From a virus (lineage: Duplodnaviria; Heunggongvirae; Uroviricota; Caudoviricetes), in IMG/VR virus record IMGVR_UViG_3300009709_000002, positions 296,228 through 360,227 of that record: DNA of 64,000 bases, one strand, 5' to 3'. Positions within the stretch are counted from its first letter, which is position 1; each line of letters opens with the position of its first letter. A model generated the notes under the pieces. That model worked only from the letters and a program-made list of their open reading frames with translations. It did no database searches and was not told where the DNA came from. Made by a program: the position numbers and the translations under genes. Positions 40,688 to 56,303 of this stretch are shown piece after piece.

Positions 40688-41950
40688 TTAAGCTTGTGGA
40701 GCCCAAGTGATCGTGCCGGTGAAGCCTGTACCAGCACCGCTCGTTGCCGTTTGAGCAACTGGGTTAGCTGGAGTAGCGCCTGGAACTGCGTTACCTTGAC
40801 CAGTGATCGACAGACCTGTTACAATGCCGTTCGTACCGATTGTCGTTACCTTAACGATGACGCCATCAGCTAGGGTGATGGTGTTACCAACTGCGTAGCC
40901 TGTACCAGCCGCCGTTACTGCAACTGCTGAAGCGTACAGATTCGATTGCCATGCTAGTTGGAACTGAGCACCAAGACCAGCGTGGTTCGTCGAAACTTGA
41001 GGAACTGGGTTAGCTGGGAGAACTGTTTCCGAACCTGGGGTCGTTACAGTTACTGTAGCTGGGCCATAAGTCCACGACAGAGTGAACGTTGCACCGTGAC
41101 CTACGCCGCTCGATGTAACTTGAGCTTCTGGGTTGGTGAACGAAGTTGCAGAAGTGATGATACCTGGTTCGAACACAGTAACAGCAGCAACGCCGAGTGT
41201 CCATTCGAGGTAAACCGTTGCACCTGTACCAGCACCGCTTGTTGCAGTTGGGGTGATTGGTTCTGGTGGGAAGTTACCAGCAGCAGCGTCAGCCGAATCA
41301 ACAGCGCCTGCAGCAGTAATCGTCAGCGTTTCAATCACGCCGTTCGTACCGATCGTTGCAACCTTAGCTACAACGCCGTCTGGCAGAGTGAGTGTATCGT
41401 TAACTGCATAGCCCGTACCAGCTGCGCCGATCGTAGCACCAGTTGCGTAACCAGTTACGCCAGTGACCTTTAGTACGAGACCATCAAACAAGCTGATGTT
41501 TTCGCCAAGAACGTAACCTGCACCAGGTGCAGCAACGACAGCGTGAACATGACCAGCATTCAGAGTAGCGACAGTAACCACTGCACCACCTGGTAGAGTG
41601 ACTGTATCACCAACAGCATAACCAGAGCCTAGAAGTATAGGAGTAGCTGATTGAAGTGAATACGTTGGTGTACCAACATAACCACCAACACCAACAACCA
41701 GACCTGAACCAGGAATAGCAGCAACTGCTGCTGTAATTGCAGCGGTGATAGCCGTTACATCAGCACCTGGAATCAGAGCCAGGCCAATGCTTACACCGTT
41801 GAGAGCGAATTCATCCAGGATGAATTCGATATTGCTTGTTCCGAGCGGCAGTGTAGGATCTGTAAGACCACGGCCGTTCAATTGAAATGTATATTGTGAA
41901 AAGGTAGCAGACATTGTCTTATCTCCAAAAGGGCTTGCAATGATTGTCAA
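40688..41950 (-). CDS. Gly/Thr/Ala/Val-rich repeat protein (beta-rich ~40-aa repeats; structural or adhesin-like)
   Basis: Internal repeats AGTGYAV(G/N)(D/N)T(L/I)TL(P/A)DGV(V/I)xKV(A/T)TIGTNG(V/I). Confidence 0.55.
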   Translation of the reverse strand: MTIIASPFGDKTMSATFSQYTFQLNGRGLTDPTLPLGTSNIEFILDEFALNGVSIGLALIPGADVTAITAAITAAVAAIPGSGLVVGVGGYVGTPTYSLQSATPILLGSGYAVGDTVTLPGGAVVTVATLNAGHVHAVVAAPGAGYVLGENISLFDGLVLKVTGVTGYATGATIGAAGTGYAVNDTLTLPDGVVAKVATIGTNGVIETLTITAAGAVDSADAAAGNFPPEPITPTATSGAGTGATVYLEWTLGVAAVTVFEPGIITSATSFTNPEAQVTSSGVGHGATFTLSWTYGPATVTVTTPGSETVLPANPVPQVSTNHAGLGAQFQLAWQSNLYASAVAVTAAGTGYAVGNTITLADGVIVKVTTIGTNGIVTGLSITGQGNAVPGATPANPVAQTATSGAGTGFTGTITWAPQA

Positions 41951-42062
41951 AGCTATGCAAGCTGTACACCGCTAAACGAATATTTATTGGTGTTGACTTA
42001 TTGGAGATATTTATTCTACGTAGACTTAAGGCTCACCAGTTTCACCACATATTGCATACAGA

Positions 42063-42401
42063 TTAGGCTACTTTGGCCCGGCGAGCGGCTTTTGCCTCAG
42101 CAACCAACCGCTGAGCGGTAGCACGATCATTTGACTTGATAATTTTGATTACGCTTTCCATATCCGTTTCGGTGAAGCGACCATCATGAAACTCATCAGC
42201 ATCACGAAACCACAGCTTTTGTTCAAAAGGCCAGACATGCATGTAAGCGGTTGTCTCGGTCAGATCCTTCGCGTGCTGCCCTTGACCAAAGAGCACATAG
42301 ATACCACCATCTTGGTGCTTGAAGTACTTTGGTGTTTCTCCTAGTAAATTGACAAGCGGATCAAGATCAACGTCAAACGTCGAGTTTTCATTTGTAGACA
42401 T
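42063..42401 (-). CDS. hypothetical protein
   Basis: ORF track. Confidence 0.45.
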   Translation of the reverse strand: MSTNENSTFDVDLDPLVNLLGETPKYFKHQDGGIYVLFGQGQHAKDLTETTAYMHVWPFEQKLWFRDADEFHDGRFTETDMESVIKIIKSNDRATAQRLVAEAKAARRAKVA

Positions 42402-42774
42402 GTGGAGATTGAAAAGAAATTGGGTAGAATGAATCTACCCAGTTGTGAACTACATGAGGGTGTAACTTACATCAGCGTGTATTCATCTTCATCATCTGGA
42501 ATCAACCAGCCGAAGAGGCAAAGAAGGATGACGGCCCAGATTGTAACCAACCAAGTGATCAATTTTTGCATGTTTACTCGTAGGGTGTCAGTTGTATATG
42601 TTCATCGGAAACCGGTTGAAAGAGTTTCAATCCGGTCAAGCTCAGCAGCCACAATCCAGCGTGAAGGACAGCACCAAAAATCTGCAAGACACCGATCAGG
42701 ATGAAGACAATTGCAGCGAGCACCTTAAGGAAGAGCCATTCAGCAACTTTCATCTTTCACCCCAACTTGGTTGT

Positions 42775-42815
42775 TTTACTATAGAGTCATTATATCACCA
42801 GCGAGTGGCGAAGTA
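42775..42815 (-). promoter_or_regulatory. early-type promoter (ATTTAC...TATAAT)
   Basis: Motif upstream of the small membrane ORFs at 42473-42752. Confidence 0.4.
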
Positions 42816-42824
42816 AATAACTTT

Positions 42825-43054
42825 TCAAACTGCCTCGCGCTTCTTGTTTTCACGGTACATTTGGCGCTTACGAGCAGCATAGGCGCGGCCGCGATTGTTG
42901 ACGACTTCCTCAAACTGCTTCGTATCTTCATTGAAACGAACACAGGGAATGTCGCCGTGATCAAGAACGAAGGCGTTGTACAGACGGCCTCCGATCTTCT
43001 TGACATGTTGGCACTTGTGACGAATCTTAACACGAATGTCTTTCCAAATTACCA
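42825..43054 (-). CDS. hypothetical small basic protein (start MVIWKD)
   Basis: AGAGGAAAAC RBS. Confidence 0.45.
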
Positions 43055-43077
43055 TGTTTTCCTCTATGGGAGATGTT

Positions 43078-43201
43078 TGGTGGCGCTGGAAGGAATCGAA
43101 CCAACCATGTTTCGCGATAGGCCCACCTATCTGCACGGAATCAAACCGTACCTCGCTACTTCCTCTGGCGAGAGGGTGCTTCCCCAGCTAGCAACAGCGC
43201 C
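43078..43201 (-). tRNA. 124-nt tRNA-like gene with perfect 7-bp acceptor stem (ggcgctg/cagcgcc) plus ACCA and two T-arm-like hairpins; possibly intron- or insertion-containing
   Basis: ggttcgattcc and acggtttgattccgt motifs; cloverleaf could not be resolved by eye. Confidence 0.4.
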
Positions 43202-43209
43202 ATTACAAC

Positions 43210-43479
43210 TTAAGACAGACCACCAATTTCGTTGAGCTTCGGATTCGTCAGCTGAGCCCAGGCATAAAACGCAGTAGGAGCTCGGCTACGAACTTCACGA
43301 AGAACAACCTTGTCTTCTTCCGTCAACGTCTCATTCACCGCACGAGTGGCGATCATCAAGCCTGCGCAGGTCATGATTTCATCACCTGCAACCTTTGCAG
43401 CCTCGCGAAGTGCATTCGTCTTCAACGTTTGCTCAGCGCGTTCAAGTTCTTTCAGACGTACGATCGAAATGTTCGGCAT
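43210..43479 (-). CDS. hypothetical small protein
   Basis: ORF track. Confidence 0.4.
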   Translation of the reverse strand: MPNISIVRLKELERAEQTLKTNALREAAKVAGDEIMTCAGLMIATRAVNETLTEEDKVVLREVRSRAPTAFYAWAQLTNPKLNEIGGLS

Positions 43480-43488
43480 TACAGCTCC

Positions 43489-43929
43489 TTACATCGGCTT
43501 CGAGTTAGCGATTGCTTCGAGGAACGAACGAGCACCAACAGAGTAATCATTCATCTTGATGCGCCAGATACGGACCGGTGAGTTAGGTTGACCAAACTCC
43601 TTGAACAAAATCTTTGCAGCACGACGGCCGACAATCACGAAGTCCTTGCCTTGGTAAGTTGCTTTGTGAAGCAGCTTGCCGCGAGTATCAGCGTGCTTGT
43701 TAAGCTCGACGACGACATCAGCCGGAATGTCCTTCATGTACGGCGATTCTTCTTTGATGACGACCGTCAGATCTTTCATCGTGAAGTTCGTGCCGGTCGA
43801 ATCATACATTGCCTTACGCGACGTAGAAATCGTTACACCGAATTCTGCTTCAACCTTAGCGAGAGCCTCGCGAATTGCATCACGAACGATGTCGATGTTT
43901 TGGCCGTTTTCGAAAGAGGAAATTTTCAT
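43489..43929 (-). CDS. hypothetical protein (start MKISSF)
   Basis: GAAAGGTG RBS; early promoter at 43964-43994. Confidence 0.55.
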   Translation of the reverse strand: MKISSFENGQNIDIVRDAIREALAKVEAEFGVTISTSRKAMYDSTGTNFTMKDLTVVIKEESPYMKDIPADVVVELNKHADTRGKLLHKATYQGKDFVIVGRRAAKILFKEFGQPNSPVRIWRIKMNDYSVGARSFLEAIANSKPM

Positions 43930-43963
43930 TTGGTGCACCTTTCGGTTTGGTTGACGTTAGAAT

Positions 43964-43994
43964 AATTATATCAATCTTCTTCAACCTTGTAAAC
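43964..43994 (-). promoter_or_regulatory. T4-early-type promoter
   Basis: GTTTACaaggttgaagaagattgaTATAAT. Confidence 0.55.
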
Positions 43995-44271
43995 ACCTTT
44001 GTGAAAATTTCACACTTTTTCAATCAAATCTGAGCTGATTCGATAGTTGCACGATACTTTGCTCGGTCTTGACGATGAATTTTTCCACCGTTTTGTCTGG
44101 CTGAACTTGGAAGATGGCAACTCCACCTTCAACCTTCTGAATGCGGTGAATTGACTGCGCATCAAAAATGCAGCCTTCAAAGAACAAGAACTGCTTGCGG
44201 GTGTAGCGTGTGGCTTCTGACATATGAGTCTCCTATGGGATATGAACCCATATTTATGGAGGCTCTAAGTC

Positions 44272-44526
44272 TTACATCGTCGCGACGGCACACACCATGG
44301 CGATGAACAGCAGATAGATCAGTGACGAGAGCAGCTTTTCGCTAGCGTTCACCGCTTCAGGATACCCGTAGAGTACGCTTCCGCCGCCCCAAACGAAGAT
44401 GGCGAGGAAAACAAACGTGCAGCTGAACCGTGCGATCCAAGGAACCATTTCAAGATGATGCATGATGTACTCCATTGCTTCACAGTATGGTTCATTATAA
44501 ATCAAACCGCACTCAAAGTACATCAC
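44272..44526 (-). CDS. small membrane protein
   Basis: Hydrophobic. Confidence 0.4.
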   Translation of the reverse strand: MMYFECGLIYNEPYCEAMEYIMHHLEMVPWIARFSCTFVFLAIFVWGGGSVLYGYPEAVNASEKLLSSLIYLLFIAMVCAVATM

Positions 44527-44963
44527 AAATCATCATCCGTGATGATGCGACCTGGTTGGAATTGTTTTGCGTATGAGAAGGGAGCTGCAGGCGGTTTGAA
44601 TTGCGGTGGCGGAGTCATGATGACTTGCACCGGCTTTGGCGCTCGCTTCACCGCTTTTCTTGGTGCGCGAGGTTTTGGTGGAGCGAGAGGTTTTGGTGGA
44701 ACTGGAGTTCCGATCTTGCCCTCTTGAGAAGGATGTCCCTTCTGCCGAACATAAGGTGCTATCTTCGGATTGCTCAACCGCTGCAAGAGCCATTCTTCAA
44801 CTTGACTCTTCCAGAAGACAGGCCCAGACCGAAGGTTTGCGACTGGTTTAGGGAAGTCCACGTGGGTTTTCTTCCAGTTCGACACGCTATTTTTACTAGC
44901 GCCAGCCATGTCGGCAATCTCTGCTACACCAACGAGATCAAGAGTTTCTGGTAGAACGTTCAT
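44523..44963 (-). CDS. HTH DNA-binding protein with Pro/Lys-rich tail
   Basis: N-terminal LVGVAEIADMAGASKNSVSNW helix-turn-helix. Confidence 0.5.
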   Translation of the reverse strand: MNVLPETLDLVGVAEIADMAGASKNSVSNWKKTHVDFPKPVANLRSGPVFWKSQVEEWLLQRLSNPKIAPYVRQKGHPSQEGKIGTPVPPKPLAPPKPRAPRKAVKRAPKPVQVIMTPPPQFKPPAAPFSYAKQFQPGRIITDDDL

Positions 44964-45084
44964 TGCTAGCCTTCAAAGTATTTAGACATTATATACCATG
45001 AAGATGAAAAAGTATTACTTTGTCCAACTCCAGATAGGAATTCCGAACAGAAACCACACGGTTCTAACCGGATATCCCCAAAAT

Positions 45085-45399
45085 TCAGGGTTGCGACCCT
45101 TGTACCACTTCCTCGGATTGTGCTGTACCATCTGCTGCGTTTCGCTCGTCAGAATGTGCATGACATGCCTTTATCAAATCTTCTTTTCGCATTTCGAGGT
45201 ACACTTCAGGTGAGCTTATGAGCGCTATGTCAGGAACACGTGAGCACAGGCCAGTAAACTCGAAGTATAGCCGTTTGAACTTCTGGAGCTGATCAGGATC
45301 TTCGATCATAGCTCCACAATACAGCCTGTCAAGCAGCTGAATGGAAGCGATAGCCTGGTCAATAGCGTCATTGCGCTTATACGTCATTTGATTAGACAC
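45085..45399 (-). CDS. hypothetical protein
   Basis: ORF track. Confidence 0.4.
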   Translation of the reverse strand: MSNQMTYKRNDAIDQAIASIQLLDRLYCGAMIEDPDQLQKFKRLYFEFTGLCSRVPDIALISSPEVYLEMRKEDLIKACHAHSDERNAADGTAQSEEVVQGSQP

Positions 45400-45643
45400 G
45401 TCGTTTCTTCCAGTTGTAGCCAGGTTCTACATCAGCCGCGCCAGGATTTCCAACCGAGTTGGGATTCTCTGAGCAGAAGGTCACGAAGCCGATCGGGCCA
45501 CCTTCGCGTTGTTCTTTTCGAAGTTCTTCAACCAGCTTCAGCGCTTCCATCATCCCGTCACCGTCAAACATCTTCGCCTGCGCGTAGCCTACCGTGCAGT
45601 TATTGTCGGTTTGATATCTTGTCCAGTATACTGCGTAAGTCAT
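45392..45643 (-). CDS. hypothetical small protein
   Basis: ORF track. Confidence 0.4.
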   Translation of the reverse strand: MTYAVYWTRYQTDNNCTVGYAQAKMFDGDGMMEALKLVEELRKEQREGGPIGFVTFCSENPNSVGNPGAADVEPGYNWKKRRV

Positions 45644-45876
45644 ATTCCTCTTTTTCGTGTTCTAGCTCTCTTTGCGTCTTTCGCAAAGAAGTTTACATGG
45701 TTCTTGATCATCCAGATCGGATTGAAGTCATACGGCATCATGTCAGTGCCTATGCTCCTGAGATTTGCGTAAGCTCCCATTCGTCGACGAAACGTACGCC
45801 AGTCTTCGAAGTGCCTACAGCCGGACTTGTAAATCTGGCGGCGATTTCGCCTGTTATTGTGGCTTAGATCATTCAT
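45640..45876 (-). CDS. hypothetical small protein
   Basis: ORF track. Confidence 0.4.
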   Translation of the reverse strand: MNDLSHNNRRNRRQIYKSGCRHFEDWRTFRRRMGAYANLRSIGTDMMPYDFNPIWMIKNHVNFFAKDAKRARTRKRGI

Positions 45877-45961
45877 TGTTCTATTCTATAATAAATCTAA
45901 TGCATTGTATACTACAAAGCCGAGGAGAATTCTCCTCGGCTTTTACTACTGAGCCGACAGC

Positions 45962-46372
45962 TTACACCGGCTTGTTCAGCAGAGCGAGCAGCTCTTCGTC
46001 GGACGCGCTGTCCAGCTTGGCGTCCTTGCGCTTTTCGAGGATCGCCATGATGCGCTGATCGCGTTCGCGAGTTGCTTGAGCTTTCGCTTCGGCATCACGC
46101 TTCTCGATCTTCACCTCGATGATGTGCTTCACGATGTCCAGCTTGACCTGGATGGTGCCGTCAGCCTTCACCGTCGAATCGACGAACGATTTGCGATTGC
46201 CTTCAGCGCTCAGTTGGCGATCGAGAGTCAGCGCGATGTCGTCGAGGTTCGGACCACCAGTCGACTTCAGCGGCAGTTCCCACAGTTGTTCGACGGTCAG
46301 TTCGCCCTTTGCAGTCGGGAAACGAAATTTTTGACGAGCTGCTTGTTCGAAAATGTTCATGTCTTTCTCCAT
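45962..46372 (-). CDS. hypothetical protein
   Basis: ORF track. Confidence 0.5.
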   Translation of the reverse strand: MEKDMNIFEQAARQKFRFPTAKGELTVEQLWELPLKSTGGPNLDDIALTLDRQLSAEGNRKSFVDSTVKADGTIQVKLDIVKHIIEVKIEKRDAEAKAQATRERDQRIMAILEKRKDAKLDSASDEELLALLNKPV

Positions 46373-46398
46373 TTGAGAGTTGATCAGTTGTACTACGT

Positions 46399-48486
46399 TT
46401 AAATCTTGAGCTTCAACACTTGGCCGAAGCTGCCAGTCGTTCGGACGATCACATCATCACGCTTCGTCGACGAGAAGCCTAGTCCGCTGAGCTGGTTGTC
46501 GGAGTCCGCGACCTTCATCTTGCCACCAACGATCTCCAACACCTTGCGGTGCGGCGTAAGCTGATCCTTCAGGAATTCATTGAAGAATCCGCGCGACGTG
46601 CCGTCGTTCTTGCACCCGTCGATCATGAAGAAGTAGTGCAAGTTGCCGATGCCGGTGAGACCATGTCCACCAGGAATGTTTACCACGCCATCCCAGTAGT
46701 TCGGCGACAGCATCACCGCATTGACCTGATGGAAGGACTGCGTCGGCAGGTTCCAGATGGTGCGCGACGATTGCTTGCCCTTCAGCGACTCGACGATCTC
46801 GAATCCATGAGCTTTCGAGTACTTGATCTTCGCGACTTCGACGCTTTCCTTGGGCCGCAGCGCGCGGTCATAGCCGAAGCTGTAAGTCGTGCCACCGAAC
46901 TCGATCTCCACTTCAAAACCTGCGCCGTCGCTACGACGCGTGAAGTTGTGAACCACGAGACGATACACGCCTTCACGCATCTTGTCTCGATTCGGGTAGA
47001 AGATGTTTTCCACCGGATGGTCCATCATTCCGTTGCCGCCGTTTGCGTCTACGTCGAGCTGGCCATTCGCCGAGGAGCGACGTTCGGCAAAGTAGATGTG
47101 ACCGCCGCCAGGTTCATACATGTGGAAGTCCAGATCATCTTTGTACTCCCAGGCGAGACGGCAGCACAGATCGCCAGTTACGCTACCGCCAGCGGCCTTG
47201 ACACGCTCCTTGATCGAGTCGGCAAATTCGCCGGAGTACGACCATGAGAAGCCGTTGTTCCACTTGAACAGCTGGCCAGCAGTTGGATCAACGGGAGCGA
47301 TCAAGCTCGCGAAGTTTCCGGAGTGGCGATTTTCGAGCAGCACTTCGACGGTCTTGGCACGAGGCAGCACGTTAGCGATGAAGTCGGAGATTGCCATCTC
47401 CTTCACGTCGTCCAGCTTCTTGACCTTCGCCGACGTAGCAGCGGCCATCTCATCGAACACATCGCCGGTCAGCACCTGTTTCGTCGATGAGTTGGCGAAC
47501 AGCAGGTTGTTGATGGAAATGTCCGACAGAGTCGCATAGCGACGCTGCAAGGCCGACGTCAGGCCGAGTTCTTCGATCGTCTTCTTGGCCTTCTCGATCA
47601 TGGCCTTCGACACCAGCGCCGACGGACGCTTGAAGCTTGCAGCGCCGACGATGGATGATTCGAACTTCTTGACCGCATCTTCCAGATCCTTGCCTTCGGC
47701 AAGATCGTACAGCAGCACGCCGATGCCGGAGTTGCCGACCCAGGCGATGGCCGCATTTTCGAGAGACTTAGTCCAGGCGAAGAGTTCACGCTCTTCGGCC
47801 GTCTTCAGCTTGACGAATTGACGCTTCAGCGCGAGGAAGCCGTCGACGACGAACTTGTAATCTTGACCGCGATAGAGCGAGTTCTGGCGAATGATGTCCG
47901 AGACAGTTTCAACCGACTCGAGGTCGACTTCCGTGAGCGCGCGGAGCAGCACCTGCTTAGCATCGCGCAGCTTTGCGATCGACGATGCGATGTCCTTGTT
48001 CGCCATGACGAACTTGGAATCGATGTTGACGAAGAAGTGTTCCCAGGCCTTCTGGCCGTTGACCAGTTGCTCGAAGTTCCGGTTCGTCCCGGCCGAACGT
48101 TCATAGTGCAGGAACGTGTTTGCGATCGGGTGCGACTTGGCGAGCGCCGACAGCGCATCAGCCACGACTTGATAGCCAGGTTCCGACGGAACCTTCACAT
48201 CCCAGATCGAGACGAGTTTGCCGTCGATGATCGCAACGCAATCACCGATCGCGCGAATGAACTGCTTGCAGCAGGAACAATCATGCTCGGTGCGTTCGCG
48301 ATAGTGCGGGTTCGTATCTGGCGGGAAACTGCCGAGGTAGGTGTTCCACAGCAGTTCCTTCATCGACAGCTGCTTCGCACGCTCTTCTTCAGTTTCCGCA
48401 GGCACCACATCAACGCGGAATAGCTGATGTTTCTGCATGCGTTCGAACTGCTTAGCGACCGCCGTCTTTAAGACGATGAAATCCAT
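46399..48486 (-). CDS. large hypothetical protein (695 aa)
   Basis: Long ORF; AAGGAGG RBS. Confidence 0.7.
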   Translation of the reverse strand: MDFIVLKTAVAKQFERMQKHQLFRVDVVPAETEEERAKQLSMKELLWNTYLGSFPPDTNPHYRERTEHDCSCCKQFIRAIGDCVAIIDGKLVSIWDVKVPSEPGYQVVADALSALAKSHPIANTFLHYERSAGTNRNFEQLVNGQKAWEHFFVNIDSKFVMANKDIASSIAKLRDAKQVLLRALTEVDLESVETVSDIIRQNSLYRGQDYKFVVDGFLALKRQFVKLKTAEERELFAWTKSLENAAIAWVGNSGIGVLLYDLAEGKDLEDAVKKFESSIVGAASFKRPSALVSKAMIEKAKKTIEELGLTSALQRRYATLSDISINNLLFANSSTKQVLTGDVFDEMAAATSAKVKKLDDVKEMAISDFIANVLPRAKTVEVLLENRHSGNFASLIAPVDPTAGQLFKWNNGFSWSYSGEFADSIKERVKAAGGSVTGDLCCRLAWEYKDDLDFHMYEPGGGHIYFAERRSSANGQLDVDANGGNGMMDHPVENIFYPNRDKMREGVYRLVVHNFTRRSDGAGFEVEIEFGGTTYSFGYDRALRPKESVEVAKIKYSKAHGFEIVESLKGKQSSRTIWNLPTQSFHQVNAVMLSPNYWDGVVNIPGGHGLTGIGNLHYFFMIDGCKNDGTSRGFFNEFLKDQLTPHRKVLEIVGGKMKVADSDNQLSGLGFSSTKRDDVIVRTTGSFGQVLKLKI

Positions 48487-48555
48487 CCGGAACCTCCTTA
48501 TGATCAGTTGTAGATAAGTAATTCTAATACAACTTTCATAAGAAGTATATCGCTT

Positions 48556-49227
48556 TTAGTGAAAAAGATCAAATTTACCGCTTTTGAGGATCAAGTCAGC
48601 AGAGACCTGCATGTCTGACCGATGATCTTTTACCACACCATGCTGTAACGCATAAGTGCGGATCTTTTCACCACGATTGCCGTTGCCGATTTGCGCCGCA
48701 CGAACATCAGCTGCCTTGCCGCTCACTTTCGAGTGCTCTAAAGCTGTGATCCTAGCTTCGAGCTGTTTCCAAGCTTCATCATAGCTATTCTCACGTGACC
48801 GCTGCTGCGAGGTCGCAATGATGCCTGTCGCTTTGTGTGTCAGCCTGCATGAGTTTTGATGCTTGTTGCGGTGCTGTCCACCTGCGCCAGTCCCGGAGTA
48901 CCACTCAACTTTGACATCTGCCTCATTGAGCTTGAACTCTAGCTTTACTTCGGTAGTGATTGCAACTGTGACGAGCGAGGTATGAACTCTGCCCTTCCGT
49001 TCAGTAGGCGGCACTCGTTGGAACTGGTGGCCGCCTGCTTCACTGTCTAGGAAGGTAAGGTCGGTTCCTTTAACTTCAAGGACCGTTTCGCCTACTCGAT
49101 TGACGGTGCTGACGAGGAGTCAGCCCTTGCGGAGGATCAGCTTGGTGTAAGCCTTGGCCAAATCTGCTACGAGTAGCTTGGAATCATCACCACCTTCAGC
49201 GGCGCGAATTTCGATGTAACGTTTCAT
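48556..49227 (-). CDS. prfA-like: class-I peptide chain release factor, RF1-type, lacking domain 1; in-frame TGA at 49120-49122
   Basis: GGQ motif (SGTGAGGQHRNK), RF1-type PxT tripeptide (RVPPTE) and RF C-terminal IRTY..DHR; frame verified continuous across TGA; the TGA aligns with the conserved Trp of RF1 (..EARRWRVEIM). Confidence 0.65.
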
Positions 49228-49424
49228 TCTATCTTCTCCGTGTTAAAAACCTTGTGAAGCTCGATCCGTAGCGGTCGGTGTGACGAGTTCAATTTCTGCC
49301 ACGTGCCGGTGATCTCGCTTAAGTACTCAAAATTACCTGTTCGTGAGTTCTTTCTGTAGTAAGTTCCATTTGTATGTTTGTAAGCATCTTGTGAATTTGC
49401 GTCAAAGAGCTTCTGCACACTCAT
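49224..49424 (-). CDS. hypothetical small protein
   Basis: ORF track. Confidence 0.4.
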   Translation of the reverse strand: MSVQKLFDANSQDAYKHTNGTYYRKNSRTGNFEYLSEITGTWQKLNSSHRPLRIELHKVFNTEKIE

Positions 49425-49443
49425 CGTGAACTACTCCTATATG

Positions 49444-50076
49444 TCAGTGCTTTCTGGTATAGACAAGCAGTACGAACTTCTTCAGCTTGTCCTCTTCAGC
49501 CCAGATCTCATCATCTGGGAGATTCTTGCCATCATAGTAGAACGGCTCATCACCGTCCATCTTCAGGTGGCCATGATCCAAGATCATGACTACCTCGTTA
49601 CTCGCGTGGCTACGAGCAATCTTCTTCCATAGCTCAGCACCGCCCTTGAACTGCTTGGTGTCTGAGATGATGGTGTATCCTTTGCTCACCAGTGAATGGT
49701 AGAGGAACGTTCCAAGACCTGCAAACTTGGTCTGCTTAGCGACCTGCACGAGATCAACTTGAAGAACGTTCGGCGAAAACTCACGACGTTCTTCGGTACC
49801 AAGCTGTAAGCTCAGCTTAAACAGCAGCTGGCCAATAACCTGCACACCATCTTCGCCATCATGGCGCTGACCACGAGTGCCGATAATAGCGGTGTCGTGA
49901 TCATCATCTAGGTAAACTTCAACGTTATCTTGCTTGCCCATCAACCTGTACTTGCGTTCTTCAAGCGCCTTGTTGGTCATGAAGTAGACGCTGAACGGCT
50001 CCGCATCTGGATCATCATCCATCTCACGGTTAGAGAGCATCGGCATTTCTGTAAGTAGTAGTTCATCTAGTCTCAT
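49444..50076 (-). CDS. hypothetical protein
   Basis: ORF track. Confidence 0.5.
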   Translation of the reverse strand: MRLDELLLTEMPMLSNREMDDDPDAEPFSVYFMTNKALEERKYRLMGKQDNVEVYLDDDHDTAIIGTRGQRHDGEDGVQVIGQLLFKLSLQLGTEERREFSPNVLQVDLVQVAKQTKFAGLGTFLYHSLVSKGYTIISDTKQFKGGAELWKKIARSHASNEVVMILDHGHLKMDGDEPFYYDGKNLPDDEIWAEEDKLKKFVLLVYTRKH

Positions 50077-50159
50077 CGGTACCTCCTAATGAGAACTATT
50101 TATTGGTTGGCAAAAGACCATCTTACTGTCATTGTATACCAACTCTACTACGTTGTACA

Positions 50160-50792
50160 TCAAAGAATTGCAAACTCATCAAGGTTTGCGTCAATCAGTT
50201 CATTCTGGCATTCAAGAATATCTCTGTCATCTTCATACACATACTTCTTTACTATTCTAAGCGCAACAAATTGATCTTCTTTTGAACCATTATCACATAC
50301 AATGAATTTCAGTTTTGGCGCTTTTAGTAAACTCAACAATCCACATTCTATCTTTATGTCATTAGAAAAATTTAATTGCTGAATTTTAGAAGATGGCTCC
50401 AATTTTAGTGATTTAATTTTGGCTCTCTTAAATTCTATTTGCAAGAAATCAATATTTAAATTACAAAGTAATTTAGCATCATCTATGATACAATTTTCAT
50501 ATCTAATGCCATTACCATGCTCTTCTAAAATATTAAGCCATACGTCATCTGGTACTGGACATTTTGTGATTGCTTTATCTTTGAAATTGAAAAATATTTT
50601 CCAGTATGAAAATTTATCATTATTTTTAGAATTATATGCTTTTACCAGCAAATCATATACTTCATCACCATCAAACTTTTTAAAGTTCATATGTGACTGA
50701 TCAACTGACAATATAACGTGATCTTTAAACCATTGTTTAGTCGATGGAGAATTCCACGCTATTTTTGATTTTGAAATTTCATGTAGTTTCAT
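50160..50792 (-). CDS. Family-A paralog (AT-rich copy)
   Basis: C-term CQNELIDANLDEFAIL. Confidence 0.75.
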   Translation of the reverse strand: MKLHEISKSKIAWNSPSTKQWFKDHVILSVDQSHMNFKKFDGDEVYDLLVKAYNSKNNDKFSYWKIFFNFKDKAITKCPVPDDVWLNILEEHGNGIRYENCIIDDAKLLCNLNIDFLQIEFKRAKIKSLKLEPSSKIQQLNFSNDIKIECGLLSLLKAPKLKFIVCDNGSKEDQFVALRIVKKYVYEDDRDILECQNELIDANLDEFAIL

Positions 50793-51400
50793 AGCTTTGC
50801 GTACTCATCAAGATTTGCATCAATCAGTTCATTCTGGCATTCAAGAATATCTCGGTCGTCTTTCAACAAGTGCTTGTTGATGATTTGAAGCGCTAATTGC
50901 AAGTCTTTCGGGCATGAAGCTGTGCCACCTACTCGGCCAATCGTTTTGCACTTCAAAATACCAAGCAATCCACACTTAACTTTCGGAAAATCTAGTGTTA
51001 GATTATCAATGCCTCCATCTAGCGAACCAAGCTTAAATGTATGAAACTCGCATCGATCCAAGATAAGCAGCTGAGCTATCGGCATTTTATCCCACGTGTC
51101 AATAACTGCACCGATTATGCGCAAACTTTCAAGCCGATTGTTACCTTGCGGCCAAGCTTTAGAATCAAATGGAATTGAGCTGATAGTTTCTTGGTGCATT
51201 ACCAGACAAGCTTTATTGATGTTCTCAATCTCTACCTTGCCATTTTCATATTTGAAAGTTACTCCACGCTCTTTCTCATACGAGATGTCATTACCATCTA
51301 CTTTCTCAGCGGTGCGTGAATCAAGGCCCCAATGCAAGGCGTGCTTTACCCACTCATCACCTACGTTATCTGATTCTTGCAGATATTGTTTGAATTTCAT
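50789..51400 (-). CDS. Family-A paralog
   Basis: C-term CQNELIDANLDEYAKL. Confidence 0.8.
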   Translation of the reverse strand: MKFKQYLQESDNVGDEWVKHALHWGLDSRTAEKVDGNDISYEKERGVTFKYENGKVEIENINKACLVMHQETISSIPFDSKAWPQGNNRLESLRIIGAVIDTWDKMPIAQLLILDRCEFHTFKLGSLDGGIDNLTLDFPKVKCGLLGILKCKTIGRVGGTASCPKDLQLALQIINKHLLKDDRDILECQNELIDANLDEYAKL

Positions 51401-52023
51401 ACCTTAGCCCACTTTTCAAACCCAGCGTCAATTAAATCTGATTGACATTCAATAATGTCTTTGCCTTCTTTGAGGTGTTTATTGACAATCTCAAATGCTT
51501 TCTCTACGTCATTATCAGCTTCATTAAAGCCATGAACGGTCTTGATGTTTTCTGTCTTCATTAGATTAAGAAGACCACACTTGATCTTTACATCTTCAAA
51601 ATTTAGAGAGTTCGTATTGACTGACGGTGGAAACTTAACAGACTCAACCACAGCACCGTTCAAATAAAGCCTAAGAAGTTTTGCTGGTGTGAAAAGCTTC
51701 TTAGGATCTTTCAAAATCCCATTGAAAACTGTTTGATGCTTGACTTGATCGCCAAACACAGCTGTCCAAAGATCTACTGAGAAATCCGGTGGCATTGAAT
51801 ATTCTTCATCCGTTTCATGATAGAATTCCAGAAAGAGCTTACACGGTCCAGAGTTTTCAGGCACGCCTTTATTTAGCGCAGTGCAAATAGCTTCACCAGT
51901 ATAAAGCGGCGTTGATCCATCATTAAATGAGCCAACGTTCACGATAATTGCATGCTTCATGAACCAATCTTCGGCTTTTGGTGATAATGCCCGTTTTGGT
52001 TTTGTTATCTCTGTTAGTTTCAT
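51397..52023 (-). CDS. Family-A paralog
   Basis: C-term CQSDLIDAGFEKWAKV. Confidence 0.8.
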   Translation of the reverse strand: MKLTEITKPKRALSPKAEDWFMKHAIIVNVGSFNDGSTPLYTGEAICTALNKGVPENSGPCKLFLEFYHETDEEYSMPPDFSVDLWTAVFGDQVKHQTVFNGILKDPKKLFTPAKLLRLYLNGAVVESVKFPPSVNTNSLNFEDVKIKCGLLNLMKTENIKTVHGFNEADNDVEKAFEIVNKHLKEGKDIIECQSDLIDAGFEKWAKV

Positions 52024-52126
52024 GCCGTCTCCTCATAAGCTTGTATTTATGTGTGAGACAAATACAACAACGGAGAGTCATTGACTCTCCTTTCTATTGT
52101 ATACTCAAGATGAAGCTTTGTAAACC

Positions 52127-52468
52127 TCAGGTCCAGAGAATGTGTCGATACTTCCAGAGCGTGTCGATATGCCTCAAAAGAGCTGTGTTTGCGATAGAAT
52201 CATATCCGTCACGCTGCTTTTCGACGATTTGATCAATCGCAAAGATTGCTTTCTTGATCTTCTTGTACGTTCGTATGCACCCTTTAGTGTGCTCATAGTC
52301 TACGGCGTCTTTGTTAGTTCTACTCAGGTAGAACTTGAATTGATCATCACCAGCTCGCTCCATGAACTCCTTCGCCATGAGGTAAACGACGTACTCCATG
52401 GAGTTATCTGCTGAATAGAAGAACGCTGGTTTGAGCTCTAGGTTGAAGTACTCGTTGGATACTTTCAT
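52127..52468 (-). CDS. hypothetical protein
   Basis: ORF track. Confidence 0.45.
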   Translation of the reverse strand: MKVSNEYFNLELKPAFFYSADNSMEYVVYLMAKEFMERAGDDQFKFYLSRTNKDAVDYEHTKGCIRTYKKIKKAIFAIDQIVEKQRDGYDSIANTALLRHIDTLWKYRHILWT

Positions 52469-52479
52469 GAGGTAGAAAT

Positions 52480-52506
52480 GACAAACCCAGCGAATATGCT
52501 GGGTTT
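52480..52506. terminator. bidirectional hairpin (aaacccagc-gaatat-gctgggttt flanked by A/T runs) at the 3' end of the tRNA cluster
   Basis: 9-bp stem with T-tract on both strands. Confidence 0.45.
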
Positions 52507-52583
52507 TGGTACACGGTGTCAGACTCGAACTGACATACTCAATCTTGTAAGGATTGTGGACTAACCTCTCTCACCAACCGTGC
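52507..52583 (-). tRNA. tRNA, anticodon loop ctTACaa (Val-UAC-like), atypical D-arm
   Basis: Acceptor gcacggt/accgtgt plus CCA; T-arm gtcag-ttcgagt-ctgac. Confidence 0.5.
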
Positions 52584-52585
52584 GG

Positions 52586-52658
52586 TACCTGGTGACGGGA
52601 TCGAACCGCCGACAATCGCCTTGTAAGGGCGGTGCTCTACCAGCTGAGCTAACCAGGC
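52586..52658 (-). tRNA. tRNA-Val (UAC); no encoded CCA; 2 nt from previous tRNA
   Basis: Canonical D-arm tagctcagctggtagagc; loop ctTACaa. Confidence 0.7.
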
Positions 52659-52664
52659 ATCATA

Positions 52665-52889
52665 TCATTCAACTTCACTGTCACTCGGAAACTCAGGCGT
52701 CTGAGGAGTCGGTGACGTGTAGATGAACTCGACTAAATTCGTCGAAGTTTCACTATAGAACAAAGTCAAGCTGGGATCGAGTGTTGGTGGTTCTGTCACC
52801 GTCGGATCATACCCAACATAATAAACTTGCACTCCGGTAGCAGTGAGATTATCAAGCTGCTGCTTTTGTGCCAGTGTGAAATTGTTCAT
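52665..52889 (-). CDS. hypothetical small protein inside the tRNA cluster
   Basis: GGAGTAAGTT RBS inside a conserved hairpin. Confidence 0.45.
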   Translation of the reverse strand: MNNFTLAQKQQLDNLTATGVQVYYVGYDPTVTEPPTLDPSLTLFYSETSTNLVEFIYTSPTPQTPEFPSDSEVE

Positions 52890-52921
52890 AACTTACTCCA
52901 TTTGATGGAGTATTTATTACT

Positions 52922-52997
52922 TGGCCCCTTGGAGTGGATTTGAACCACCGACAGGAGATGTTCAGTCTCCTACTCTACCAGGCTGAGTTACCGCGGG
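52922..52997 (-). tRNA. tRNA-Phe (GAA)-like
   Basis: Loop ctGAAca; T-loop ttcaaat; CCA; acceptor has 2 mismatches. Confidence 0.5.
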
Positions 52998-53052
52998 ATT
53001 GTAGCACCTGACATAGATTATAGAGGATATCAGGTGACAACGTCTCCTCTTT

Positions 53053-53128
53053 TGGCTCCCCAGGCTGGGCTCGAACCAACGACCATTGCATTAACAGTGC
53101 AACGCTCTACCAACTGAGCTACTGGGGA
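53053..53128 (-). tRNA. tRNA-Asn (GUU)
   Basis: Perfect acceptor tccccag/ctgggga plus gCCA; loop ctGTTaa. Confidence 0.8.
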
Positions 53129-53255
53129 ATTGACTGGTTTCTACGCATTTAAAAGTATCGTAAGGGCTTATCCAGACAGCCTCAACATTAATAGTGAATT
53201 GCAACCAATAAAGCCTACCCCGCAAGGCAGACTACCGTCATCGTCTTATCATCAC

Positions 53256-53331
53256 TGGTGCCCCTTGTCTGATTCGAACAGACCACCTACGCATTACAAG
53301 TGCGTTGCTCTACCAAATGAGCTAAAGGGGC
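53256..53331 (-). tRNA. tRNA-Thr (UGU)
   Basis: Acceptor gcccctt/aaggggc plus aCCA; loop ctTGTaa. Confidence 0.8.
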
Positions 53332-53405
53332 AATGACGTTAGAGTTAAAAGCAATCTGAGTGATTTTTCTATGCGCGAAGTAACTCAGATCTACGCAACT
53401 AACGA

Positions 53406-53480
53406 TGGAGCCCTGCCACGGAATCGAACCGTGTTCGCTGGATTACAAAACCAGTATAATAACCAATATACGAGAAGGGC
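53406..53480 (-). tRNA. tRNA, Thr(UGU)-like loop ttTGTaa, noncanonical D-arm
   Basis: T-arm acgg-ttcgatt-ccgt; CCA. Confidence 0.5.
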
Positions 53481-53523
53481 ATTAAAGGCAGAGATAAAGT
53501 CGAAAAGTGTTTAAGCCTCTTGC

Positions 53524-53600
53524 GAGGTTCGATGGACTTGAACCATCCTTATCGCCAAGATTATTAGTCCCGCGAATTTACCCGATGTAACACTTCACTA
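53524..53600 (-). tRNA. tRNA-like element (perfect T-arm gatgg-ttcaagt-ccatc, no clear acceptor)
   Basis: Partial structure only. Confidence 0.25.
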
Positions 53601-53610
53601 CGCAACTACC

Positions 53611-53685
53611 TGGTGCCCTAGTACGGAATCGAACCGCATTTTCTTGATTACGAAACAAGTGTAATAGCCAGTATACTACAAGGGC
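53611..53685 (-). tRNA. tRNA, loop ttCGTaa (Thr-CGU-like), noncanonical D-arm
   Basis: Acceptor gcccttg/ctagggc plus aCCA. Confidence 0.5.
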
Positions 53686-53689
53686 AATC

Positions 53690-53896
53690 TTAATCTTCAC
53701 CGGGCTTCTTCAATGTGAAGCCCTTATCAATCGCGATACTTTCCAACAGTGCGCAGATAACTTTCATTGCACCAAGCGGACCAGATCCTTTCGGATAGTA
53801 AGCGAGATAATACTCTTGCAACTGTTCTTCTGTGTCGAACTGGCCTACAAAATCAGGCAGAAAACGAGGAAAAGAACGTTCAATTTTCTTTTTCAT
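53690..53896 (-). CDS. hypothetical small protein inside the tRNA cluster
   Basis: ORF track. Confidence 0.4.
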   Translation of the reverse strand: MKKKIERSFPRFLPDFVGQFDTEEQLQEYYLAYYPKGSGPLGAMKVICALLESIAIDKGFTLKKPGED

Positions 53897-53956
53897 GATT
53901 TACTCCAAGTTGTAGATGGTACTATTCTATCATCATTTCATCTCAAAGTAAATTAG

Positions 53957-54030
53957 TGGTCAAGGATAACGGAATCGAACCGTTGACTCTTCGCTCCAAA
54001 GGAAGTATGTTACCATTACATCAATCCAAG
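53957..54030 (-). tRNA. tRNA-Pro (UGG)-like
   Basis: D-arm atgt-aatggtaa-acat; loop ttTGGag; CCA. Confidence 0.5.
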
Positions 54031-54112
54031 ATAGACACAGAGTTAAAGTCGACGTGAGCTGTTGTAAGCAAATGGAAGATTAGCGATGAAACTCACTTCT
54101 ACGCAACTGTGT

Positions 54113-54186
54113 TGGTCACCGTGGCTGGAATCGGACCAGCGATTCGACCATCCGAGGGTCGTATGTTACCACTACATTACACGGGG
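54113..54186 (-). tRNA. tRNA-Pro (CGG)
   Basis: D-arm atgt-agtggtaa-acat; stem cgacc/ggtcg; loop ctCGGat; CCA. Confidence 0.65.
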
Positions 54187-54579
54187 ATTGCTGAATCTAC
54201 GGATAGGTTCCCTCTGTTCCGGGAGTCGTATTTATCGTAGCCTTCAACTTACAAACTTGAGAATGGTTTGTTCAACCAAGCTTGGTATTCACCAGGCTTC
54301 CATTCTTTGGCTTTACACTCTTCATCAAATTTCTTCAGACGTTCATTCAATCTTTTGAAATCTTCTTCAGTAGGTTCAAACTTCTTTGCTGCTTCAATCA
54401 ATTCACAAACTGTCATAGATCTAAGTCCGAGATTGGATCTTCAGCTTTACCGCTACCCCAACATCTACTACATGCTCTTGGATCGCAGTTAACTAATTCT
54501 TCATAAGTTGGCTCATACTGATCGCCAGGCTCATAACCAGAACCTTCACATCGTTCACACTTATCAACTTTATTCATGA

Positions 54580-54653
54580 TGGCAGGCCACCAGGGAATCG
54601 AACCCCGGTCCGCAGTTTTGGAGACTGTTATGTTACCACTACACTAGTGACCC
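54580..54653 (-). tRNA. tRNA-Trp (CCA)
   Basis: Loop ctCCAaa; T-arm cgggg-ttcgatt-ccctg; gCCA. Confidence 0.75.
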
Positions 54654-54788
54654 GTTGTACTTCAATGATAGCAGCTAGATCCACTTTAACAGTGTTGCCC
54701 GGGACGTGCTGATCTGACCCAACTACTATTATTGAAGTTGCTGGTTACAAGTTCCAGCGATGCCTCTATCTTTGGCCCTGATTTTCTA

Positions 54789-55016
54789 CTACGCGTTAAC
54801 GGCTGGGAAGTCGCCGCCAACGTTATCTGCTTCATCCTGTCCGTCATAGCCGCATGTTGCACATGAAACATCATCGGACGGATTTACATCTGTCGGCATC
54901 GGAGCACCACAGTTAGCACAGATTTCATCACCGTCATTATTGAACGAATCTCTGTTCAACATGCGCCGCTGATCTTTTGCCGACTGAAGAGGAGTCATTA
55001 ACTCTTTAAGCTTCAT
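54789..55016 (-). CDS. small zinc-ribbon protein (CxxC..CxxC), paralog of 55026..55226
   Basis: MKLKELMTPLQSAKD...CANCG...CATCGYDG. Confidence 0.5.
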   Translation of the reverse strand: MKLKELMTPLQSAKDQRRMLNRDSFNNDGDEICANCGAPMPTDVNPSDDVSCATCGYDGQDEADNVGGDFPAVNA

Positions 55017-55025
55017 GATTCATCC

Positions 55026-55226
55026 TCAAGGATTCGGTGCGGCATAATCGCCTGCCACATCTTCCGAACCCGGTTCTCCATCATATCCACACTCAGTACA
55101 TGCACCTTCATCATCCATCGTATCTTGACCACATTGTGGACAAGGTCCGGTTTGTTCATCTCGAGAAAGCATGCGATAACGATCTTTCGTCGATTGAAGC
55201 GGAATATTCAGCTCATGTAACTTCAT
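55026..55226 (-). CDS. small zinc-ribbon protein, paralog of 54789..55016
   Basis: MKLHELNIPLQSTKD...CPQCG...CTECGYDG. Confidence 0.5.
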   Translation of the reverse strand: MKLHELNIPLQSTKDRYRMLSRDEQTGPCPQCGQDTMDDEGACTECGYDGEPGSEDVAGDYAAPNP

Positions 55227-55240
55227 GTTTCATCCTTAGT

Positions 55241-55315
55241 TGGCGGTCCGTAAGGGGATCGAACCCTCATGTCCGGATAGACAGTCCAGCATAATGACCA
55301 TTATATGAACGAACC
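55241..55315 (-). tRNA. tRNA-Asp (GUC)-like
   Basis: Loop ctGTCta; acceptor ggttcgt/acggacc; CCA. Confidence 0.5.
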
Positions 55316-55346
55316 AGCGATGAAACTATTTATACAACTCAAAACT

Positions 55347-55420
55347 TGGTGGGTCTGCCTGGAATTGAACCAGGAATCTCCGGCGGCAATCGCGCAGTGT
55401 GTTGCTTACACTACAGACCC
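55347..55420 (-). tRNA. tRNA, anticodon unresolved (atypical loop cgATTgc)
   Basis: Perfect acceptor gggtctg/cagaccc plus aCCA; T-arm cctgg-ttcaatt-ccagg. Confidence 0.5.
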
Positions 55421-55583
55421 AAGGAATGATTGACGAGTCACTCGGATTTGCACCCAGGTTTCACGCTTTGCTCGCGTGCGTCCTTCTACTAGACGATAAC
55501 CCTCACTACTTTTCGCTGGTTGGCGCCAACTTTGCGTAGTGCAATCATAATTTTACATCCGTGCGCCAACACTTCAGTAAAAT

Positions 55584-55656
55584 TGGTGGAGCTGCCTGGA
55601 ATTGAACCAGGAATCTTCAGCCTAAGCGGCCGATGTGTTGCTTACACCACAACTCC
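55584..55656 (-). tRNA. tRNA, anticodon unresolved (loop cgCTTag); paralog of 55347..55420
   Basis: Same D and T arms as its neighbour; CCA. Confidence 0.5.
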
Positions 55657-55663
55657 AAAATAT

Positions 55664-55882
55664 TTAGTGAACTAACATCACCTGAACGACTGGTGTTTCT
55701 GAACCATCATTCTCTGTCCAGAAACGAATAGCGAAGCAATCTACTGCGTAAGCTTCACCACCGTCGATCGCTTCAACGAGTAGCTCTTTCTTCTGATCAA
55801 ACTGTTGAAGATGTTTGATAGCTTCTTCAACCGTCATTTTCTTCACCTTGTTGCTCACGAAGAATATCCATTGCGAAATCAT
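55664..55882 (-). CDS. hypothetical small protein
   Basis: ORF track. Confidence 0.4.
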   Translation of the reverse strand: MISQWIFFVSNKVKKMTVEEAIKHLQQFDQKKELLVEAIDGGEAYAVDCFAIRFWTENDGSETPVVQVMLVH

Positions 55883-56066
55883 AACCTGACCAGTTATCTA
55901 CACCAGCACATTCAAGCGCAGTGAGCTTTGCTGAATCTTCACAAAGACTGTTATACTCTTTCTTTGTGATAGTTACCATCTCTTCAGTTGGTGCAACCAT
56001 GTTGTTGTCCTCAGTTTGAATCAGTAAGAGGATTCTAAATCATTTCAACAACATCGTAAATTTATT

Positions 56067-56300: not shown

Positions 56301-56303
56301 TAC

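Follow-up and report, generated by a model that had tools for sequence, protein, structure and literature searches.

The stretch analysed here, 64,000 nucleotides of the virus record IMGVR_UViG_3300009709_000002 (positions 296,228 to 360,227 of that record; the window in what follows), carries on its minus strand a gene for an RF1-type release factor (RF) that is interrupted by an in-frame UGA. The complete recoded gene, which encodes a factor without domain 1, spans 48556..49227 and is 224 codons long with one internal stop: 223 sense codons, counting the UGA position, are followed by the terminal TAA at 48556-48558. The first 35 codons (MKRYIEIRAAEGGDDSKLLVADLAKAYTKLILRKG; 49123..49227) correspond to the start of RF domain 2. 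Their amino-acid conservation is strong across the family, and gene callers that use code 11 list them as a separate open reading frame (ORF) of 35 residues. Codon 36 (49120..49122), in the context GGC TGA CTC, is the proposed site of readthrough. It is followed by 187 zero-frame codons (48559..49119) in which translation, Pfam matches and alignments place the PPT tripeptide of codon recognition, the GGQ motif of peptidyl-tRNA hydrolysis and domain 4. Codon-by-codon translation showed the reading frame to be unbroken through the TGA at 49122..49120. The peptide quoted in the original prediction, which had been made from the letters of this stretch, was reproduced exactly from the minus strand, 49227..48556, and its statement that the TGA lies in the zero frame and not at a prfB-style shift agrees with the continuous frame at the site GGC UGA C.

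The initiation region (49224..49239, minus strand) contains a GGAG at 49236-49239, 8 nt before the ATG (49225-49227). This ATG overlaps, as ATGA, the TGA stop (49224-49226) of a preceding ORF of 66 residues, for which no similarity to RFs was found. TGA is thus in normal use as a stop 35 codons ahead of the recoded one. The earliest possible start codon 3' of the UGA is 35 codons away, which makes independent initiation of the downstream part unlikely.

Domain searches were run with Trp placed at codon 36. The Pfam PCRF domain was matched by residues 4-88, across the stop, at profile positions 103-194 of 194, which is its C-terminal half, and the RF-1 domain PF00472 by residues 96-203 (76 bits, cut-off 35). 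The top NCBIfam match was prfA with 174 bits, below the equivalog cut-off of 400 bits, at profile positions 107-321 of 347; prfB scored 114 bits. Because the prfA alignment starts only at profile position 107, domain 1, which makes up about 105 residues of the four-domain RF1 architecture, is missing, as had been proposed. In a phmmer search of solved structures, T. maritima RF1 was matched with E = 7e-36. The alignments begin at residue 87 of the T. maritima factor and residue 111 of the E. coli factor, and codon 36 pairs with the Trp of both (ERKGWNLEV and EARRWRVEIM, respectively), so that the predicted coincidence of the stop with the conserved RF1 Trp was confirmed. PPT lies at residues 73-75 and GGQ at residues 116-118; these motifs and the higher score of prfA than prfB bear out the assignment to the RF1 type. 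The recognition stretch FQRVPPTERKGRVHTS satisfies the pattern QRVPxTE..GRxHTS and contains the FQRVP..HTS determinants, and the domain-4 block IRTY..DHR is present. GAGGQ is invariant in the family alignment and PPT is nearly so. By its motifs, the protein is classed as an RF1-type class-I release factor without domain 1 and with UAA/UAG specificity. The rescue factors PrfH and ArfB are likewise RF-family proteins that miss part of the canonical architecture; unlike them, the present protein retains the RF1 codon-recognition superdomain with PxT. Both assignments were rejected, PrfH (TIGR03072) with 40 bits against a cut-off of 166.65, a match to the GGQ domain only and no RtcB neighbour seen, and ArfB with 18 bits against a cut-off of 100.

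The in-frame TGA is shared by the whole family. In a first set of 85 genes (71 distinct sequences, 51-99% amino-acid identity), every gene has this TGA at the homologous codon and no second in-frame stop. The set includes 80 IMG/VR loci with 51-60% identity on contigs of up to 364 kb; TGA is present in them and there is no further in-frame stop. A near-identical phage in two other SRA assemblies (L001 and L002) has the 35-codon ORF, the TGA and the zero-frame continuation, and the relatives L003 (76% identity) and L084 (82%) have the same layout. A scan of species-representative genomes found the TGA also in contigs of metagenome-assembled genomes (MAGs) and in the isolate chromosomes of Jiella sp. 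LLJ827, Thalassospira xianhensis and Pararhizobium sp. BT-229. Nineteen further loci came from a metagenome scan, the TGA occurs in L252-L255 as well, and in a plasmid collection the TGA gene was found on megaplasmids of Variovorax, Rhizobium and Bosea. In total, about 110 domain-1-less loci from IMG/VR, SRA assemblies, metagenomes, isolate chromosomes and megaplasmids, with 42-99% identity, have TGA at codon 36. In about 130 full-length cellular RF1 genes recovered by these scans, codon 36 is TGG apart from a few TTT/TTC and one GAT, so that TGA and TGG split the domain-1-less genes from the cellular RF1 genes near-perfectly. TGG, TTT and TTC in the cellular genes imply that an aromatic residue is expected at codon 36. 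The single exception to the split is L097, from a Hahella MAG, which has TGG at codon 36 and a different recoding downstream. The family alignment indicates purifying selection on both sides of the stop, in one frame, over about 50% divergence. The presence of the same TGA throughout the first set is far beyond chance.

The family is poorly visible at the protein level. A protein search revealed a large family of domain-1-less RF1-like proteins of roughly 222 residues, in which most full-length members lie on contigs of about 1 kb, and the truncated ones on long contigs. The L084 protein is stored in the database with 'W' at the site and its DNA reads TGA; the same is true of one NCBI-sourced member. 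The database 'W' residues stem from code-4 gene calls on short contigs and are not translatable from the DNA under code 11. For the entries P0001 and P0003-P0095, the metagenome callers used code 4 and wrote Trp at the UGA. Protein-level searches therefore conceal the recoding. A near-identity DNA search against GenBank phages gave no match, and no cultured phage in the GenBank phage collection carries the family, the best tblastn match being 40% identical.

The base that follows the stop (+4) is A in 54, G in 26 and C in 5 of the 85 recoding sites. U was never found there, whereas it follows 40 of the 170 genuine TGA stops counted in these phages. A +4 U is reported to lower read-through in bacteria (PMC5289835). 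The codon that precedes the stop is nearly always Gly (GGC 61, GGT 18, GGA 4). The termination context at the recoded UGA is predicted to be weak. Synonymous-codon identity is highest in the nine codons after the stop, with the peak of constraint at codons 36-45. The codons Ile41 (ATA in 59 of 60), Asn42 (AAT in 31 of 31), Leu45 (CTT in 47 of 52) and Arg39 (CGC in 59 of 65) are close to invariant. When relatedness is controlled for pairwise, the top 7-codon window of the whole gene begins at codon 36 with an excess of 0.35 (median -0.02, standard deviation 0.09).

The same region is unusually stable as RNA. In a folding test, 39 sequences with less than 80% nucleotide identity were compared with versions in which the synonymous codons had been randomised. 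Codons 34-54 gave a mean minimum-free-energy z of -1.88, with 62% of the sequences below -1.5, against a mean z of -0.8 to +0.2 in all ten other windows of the gene. Excess pairing is seen at +7..+13 and at +17..+20 with +25..+39, and a deficit in a loop near +22; a hairpin that begins 5-9 nt 3' of the UGA is favoured. The main clade folds as CGCC-U-GAUA-AAUGAG-UAUC-UU-GGCG, often lengthened by UGAACU:AGUUCA pairing. Relative to the reading frame, its 3' arm is found in three or more registers, in which it codes for different amino acids. In an ungapped alignment, 80.4% of the cells are paired in this structure, compared to 26-45% in slid registers, and its covariation of 0.176, compared to at most 0.084 in slid registers, was matched by none of 500 shuffles. 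Distant members of the family (45-50% identity) have stable hairpins at the same location with unrelated stems and loops. In the clade of the window, the predicted hairpin GCUGAC-UCCUC-GUCAGC (49108..49124, minus strand; pairing probability 1.0) contains the UGA in its 5' arm and is kept in the 82% identical L084. Further stem-loops are predicted from about +16 (49060..49107, minus strand), with low confidence in the exact pairs in this clade, and the 66-nt region has z = -2.36 relative to dinucleotide shuffles. An Rfam scan of the region gave no relevant match. The same stop and a hairpin in relatives look like a deliberate readthrough switch and not an error. The suggestion in the original prediction that the site may be a regulatory readthrough switch is supported by the family-wide TGA and by this RNA-level signal 3' of the stop.

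The phage uses the standard genetic code. Among 80 non-nested ORFs of at least 100 residues on the coding strand of the window, 41 end with TGA, 33 with TAA and 6 with TAG; 13 of the 41 TGA stops are ATGA overlaps with the start of the next gene. The three longest genes (695, 420 and 393 residues) have no internal TGA, and code-11 ORFs cover 81% of the coding strand. A crude search of this strand for two ORFs in one frame with one TGA between them gave no other convincing candidate and no case comparable to the RF gene, in line with the predicted lack of any other gene in the window that needs recoding. TGA accounts for 170 of 556 stops (31%) in the loci of relatives, TAA for 62% and TAG for 7%. 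Of these stops 93% are readable by RF2, and the 62% that are UAA can be read by either factor. ARAGORN found neither a tRNA with a UCA anticodon nor a tRNA-Sec among the 30 tRNAs of the window or in 60 related loci, whose tRNAs number up to 36. With TGA as the main stop, no tRNA(UCA) and no TGA inside the longest genes, the genome does not look like one with a reassigned stop (code 4 or 25), and the code-4-like decoding that had been entertained for phage or host is not supported.

A tRNA-Trp(CCA) gene, which had been noticed earlier, was located by ARAGORN at 54580..54653 on the same (minus) strand, 5.35 kb from the RF gene, and its product is a candidate near-cognate decoder of the UGA. Nine related loci also have tRNA-Trp(CCA) near the RF gene. 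A Watson-Crick pair U11:A24, as in the Hirsh suppressor, is present in 10 of 10 phage tRNA-Trp examined; it is not diagnostic and does not discriminate the idea of a Hirsh-type suppressor. The pair is also common in wild-type bacterial tRNA-Trp.

Taken together, these observations make it probable that programmed, structure-assisted readthrough of UGA as Trp gates the synthesis of an accessory RF1. Such a factor, specific for UAA/UAG, would be carried by large tRNA-rich phages and by megaplasmid and chromosomal islands of Proteobacteria. At codon 36, host RF2 would terminate translation and release an inert peptide of 35 residues. Alternatively, the near-cognate tRNA-Trp(CCA) of the host or the phage would decode the UGA, restore the ancestral Trp and yield the full factor. 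Readthrough would be helped by the weak context, in which +4 is never U, and by the stem-loop, which starts about 5-9 nt 3' of the stop, the usual position of recoding stimulators. The competition between RF2 and tRNA-Trp at the UGA implies that output of the phage RF1 would rise when RF2 is limiting or tRNA-Trp is abundant. Since UGA termination needs RF2, which an RF1-type product should not replace, the yield of the factor would go up as RF2 becomes limiting. The added RF1 could take over termination at UAA (and UAG), so that more RF2 would be left for the UGA stops, which are many in these genomes. The site thus probably reports the balance of RF2 and tRNA-Trp. We infer each of three elements of this scheme separately, namely the insertion of Trp, the stimulation of readthrough by the hairpin, and RF2 sensing as the purpose. 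The broadest form of the proposal is more tentative. It may be that this is the first bacterial-type RF gene under readthrough control, in which RF2-sensitive, hairpin-assisted decoding of UGA as Trp sets the level of a mobile domain-1-less RF1 and lets phages and megaplasmids sense the host RF2/tRNA-Trp balance and re-tune termination during takeover, and also the first structure-stimulated readthrough signal on bacterial ribosomes.

Several points weigh against this proposal. The clade of the window folds unlike the main clade, and L003 does not have the first hairpin. Individual hairpins are modest, with z of -0.55 to -3.7 relative to dinucleotide shuffles, RNAalifold found no single consensus structure for 66 aligned sequences, and there are few double compensatory changes (21 cells). 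Across the family, base-pairing of the UGA itself is marginal and bimodal (0.63 compared to 0.51 in controls, p = 0.05), and sequestration of the UGA in a stem was dropped as a general feature. To our knowledge, no structure-stimulated readthrough signal has been established in bacteria. The full-length product and the inserted residue are deduced from the sequence. The rationale of RF2 sensing is a logical one, and low basal expression could be the sole function of the stop. Recoded late genes or a suppressor tRNA may lie outside the 64-kb window of this phage.

Among the other explanations, the one that fares best, though improbable, is a switch of the code during infection. An unseen UGA suppressor, or a modification of tRNA-Trp or RF2, would turn UGA into a Trp codon late, and the RF1 gene would be one of several TGA-containing late genes. 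TGA-recoded Jade phages have RF1 beside a suppressor tRNA and TrpRS (bioRxiv 10.1101/2021.08.26.457843), AT-rich huge phages have RF1-like genes that bear one or two in-frame TGAs elsewhere, and the present view is limited to 64 kb of the genome. However, a code switch is difficult to reconcile with TGA as the top stop of the window and as 31% of the stops in relatives, with the lack of a second in-frame TGA candidate in the window, and with arrays of up to 36 tRNAs that contain no tRNA(UCA). The same single TGA is also found in chromosomal and megaplasmid copies, where no code switch would be expected.

Insertion of selenocysteine (Sec) at residue 36 by SelB and tRNA-Sec, with the UGA and the downstream hairpin acting as a bacterial selenocysteine insertion sequence (SECIS), is distinctly unlikely. 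The geometry resembles that of SECIS elements of the E. coli fdhF type, the hairpin being at or just after the UGA and its apical loop about 19-24 nt downstream, and the UGA is absolutely conserved. Nevertheless, neither the family nor its cellular homologues have a Cys at position 36, where the homologues have Trp or Phe, and no redox role is conceivable for the site. The apical loops are all different (AAUGAG, GAU, AUCA, ACGA, AUAC) without a conserved SelB-contact motif, and no tRNA-Sec is present in the window or the 60 related loci.

It is slightly less likely still that the stop is simply obeyed, so that the locus makes a 35-residue peptide plus a separate C-terminal fragment, or nothing useful, and the TGA keeps a potentially toxic factor near-silent. 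Gene callers and RefSeq do annotate two ORFs, and an abundant RF without domain 1 could be harmful. Against this stand the absence of a conserved start codon after the stop (the first one in the window being 35 codons on), the continuity of the PCRF domain and the RF1 alignment across it, the one-frame purifying selection on both of its sides over about 50% divergence, and the selected RNA element at the stop. One A-to-G substitution would be enough to open the gene, and a deletion to destroy it; neither was found in about 110 loci.

RNA editing is very unlikely. The A of the UGA would be converted to inosine, and UGI would be read as UGG, i.e. Trp, as at the amber/W site of hepatitis delta virus. 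The UGA is predicted to be paired with a probability above 0.9 in about half of the diverse sequences, but its pairing, bimodal and barely above the controls, is not universal. Bacterial TadA substrates have a UACG loop motif, which the recoding site lacks, and we know of no double-stranded RNA adenosine deaminase in phages or bacteria. A sequencing error or a recently formed pseudogene, peculiar to this genome, for which nothing speaks but the presence of a stop and which the original prediction had named as its own refutation, is excluded for practical purposes by the same TGA in L001, L002, L003, L084, 80 IMG/VR contigs, isolate genomes and megaplasmids; the TGA is, on these sequences, a character of the family and neither a sequencing error nor a pseudogene lesion.

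Programmed readthrough, the preferred explanation, is a known kind of event and would be conceptually parallel to the control of prfB; the present case appears to be new. The prfB (RF2) +1 frameshift also involves an RF gene with an early in-frame UGA, at which decoding competes with RF2 and expression is tied to RF2 activity. Unlike in prfB, the downstream ORF is in the zero frame here, and the UGA site is preceded neither by CUU nor by a Shine-Dalgarno-like stimulator. The event must therefore be readthrough. As the product is of the RF1 type, RF2 would cross-regulate another factor rather than autoregulate as in prfB.

The coat readthrough protein A1 of phage Q-beta, like other cases in bacteria where a near-cognate tRNA-Trp reads UGA, is similar in that UGA is read at low frequency by the normal tRNA-Trp(CCA) in a bacterium with the standard code. 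Unlike here, the Q-beta product is a C-terminal extension on a fraction of the coat, with no known need for a 3' structure, and its stop is not at a conserved sense codon. Readthrough control has been hypothesised for RF2, but no bacterial RF2 gene has such an in-frame UGA, and an RF1/UAG counterpart is reported as not known (Atkins et al. 2016; PMC5009743). The only RF gene that needs readthrough in that review is the eRF1-like gene of the giant amoeba viruses (Megavirus/Mimivirus). It resembles the present gene as a virus termination-factor gene dependent on stop-codon recoding of itself (PMC5009743). The giant-virus gene, however, encodes a eukaryotic-type eRF1 and uses readthrough plus frameshifting, whereas the present factor is a bacterial-type RF1 without domain 1, and its gene has one UGA in place of a conserved Trp, with a hairpin 3' of it. 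The signal resembles the structure-stimulated readthrough sites of alphaviruses, coltiviruses and murine leukaemia virus, which share a leaky UGA, a favourable +4 base, synonymous conservation and a stem-loop a few nt 3' (PMC3159437). Those sites operate on eukaryotic ribosomes with eRF1 and extend polyproteins, whereas the present one would operate on the bacterial ribosome, with RF2 as the competitor and the stop within one globular domain. The Jade phages (code 4) also link a phage RF1 to decoding of UGA as Trp (bioRxiv 10.1101/2021.08.26.457843). Their RF1 gene is itself in the standard code, is accompanied by tRNA(UCA) and TrpRS, and serves genome-wide reassignment; in the present phage TGA stays the main stop and only the RF gene has an in-frame TGA. 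Full-text literature searches found no prior description of the domain-1-less RF1 family or of its stop.

Other forms of recoding were found among the homologues. The domain-1-less RF homologue of the uncultured huge phage LR745208.1 (L090, 485 kb) has a prfB-type cassette, GGAGGGG-U-CUU-UGA-C, with a +1 continuation. This site (684-701, CGG AGG GGU CUU UGA CCU) is at the codon position equivalent to Trp36. By analogy, an established device for sensing RF2 has thus been put to use at this position as well. The L090 protein has the GGQ motif and no PxT or SPF loop (QRTSNGRIHSS). The uncultured phages L086-L089 (LR756504, LR756502, LR745206 and LR756501; 630-735 kb), whose genomes are AT-rich, have RF1-like genes without domain 1 in which one or two TGAs lie in frame at different positions nearby, e.g. 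ASI-TGA-LQG and NFN-TGA-RVVEV. In L097 (MAG contig JANQMN010000065, about 4105-4130), TCT CTT TAG CCC is found six codons past the TGG, and the ORF goes on in the +1 frame. The site may be a CUU-UAG analogue, sensed by RF1, of the prfB shift site, or an assembly error.

The locus would offer an instance of programmed UGA readthrough by bacterial ribosomes that is natural, widespread and easy to test, and that has a candidate RNA stimulator on its 3' side. Such stimulators are well known in eukaryotic viruses and are not established in bacteria. If the proposal is true, the two bacterial RFs are linked, with RF2 activity controlling an RF1 paralogue, a logic that was anticipated for RF genes and reported as not known (PMC5009743). 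The postulate of a readthrough version of prfB autoregulation is decades old, and no example was ever found; the present gene would be one. The domain-1-less RF1 proteins form a large unannotated family within the tRNA arrays of big phages and megaplasmids. They pose an annotation problem, since code 11 splits the gene into a 35-residue 'hypothetical' and a 'release factor-like' protein and code 4 silently writes Trp on short contigs. RefSeq, for instance, splits the Variovorax gene into WP_162570722.1 (hypothetical) and WP_162571144.1 (peptide chain release factor-like), and annotation of this type likely affects all carriers. Cultivable carriers are Variovorax sp. SRS16, Thalassospira xianhensis MCCC 1A02616, Jiella sp. 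LLJ827 and Pararhizobium sp. BT-229.

The RF gene has tRNAs, DUF8224 and small ORFs as neighbours. It is enclosed by an array of 30 same-strand tRNA genes (35500..58189, minus strand; ARAGORN), which forms a translation-supply module together with a CCA-adding enzyme (61263-62444). The array of the window contains duplicated isoacceptors (Val-TAC twice, Thr-TGT twice, Phe-GAA three times and Asn-GTT three times) and a tRNA-Asn with the unusual anticodon ATT (55347-55420, minus strand). The RF gene lies within a same-strand tRNA array in most related loci and on the Variovorax megaplasmid as well. On the latter (L251, Variovorax sp. SRS16 plasmid 2, NZ_LR594667.1, 801 kb), the recoded gene occupies 5959-6663 within an array of 12 tRNAs; an HNH endonuclease and a SecB-like gene are also present. 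Pfam scans around the chromosomal copies of Jiella, Thalassospira and Pararhizobium gave heterogeneous and uninformative neighbours (LytB, APH, NUDIX/NMNAT, methyltransferase).

Directly 3' of the RF gene, and syntenic in L001-L003, lies the gene of a 695-residue DUF8224 / phrog_1735 protein (46399-48486, minus strand). The protein is about 51% identical to those of phiCbK-like Caulobacter phages and Ralstonia phiRSL1, which is too distant for host assignment, and the local GC content is 56%, compared to about 47% in the surroundings. Elsewhere in the window, about 15 tandem paralogous ORFs of 110-175 residues (17762-23890, minus strand) share the motif (V)EVLPTSFxK(T/S)RPIEQ(D/E). Each of them runs for about 30 codons past the motif to a TGA and overlaps the start of the next ORF by 80-110 nt in another frame. 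About 17 ORFs at 254-10229 and 4 at 49444-52023 (minus strand), of about 190-240 residues and mostly joined by ATGA, look like an expanded paralogous family, with one weak match to phrog_7522. A 62-nt tandem repeat of 2.9 copies with 79% matches, apparently non-coding, is located at 17206-17386.

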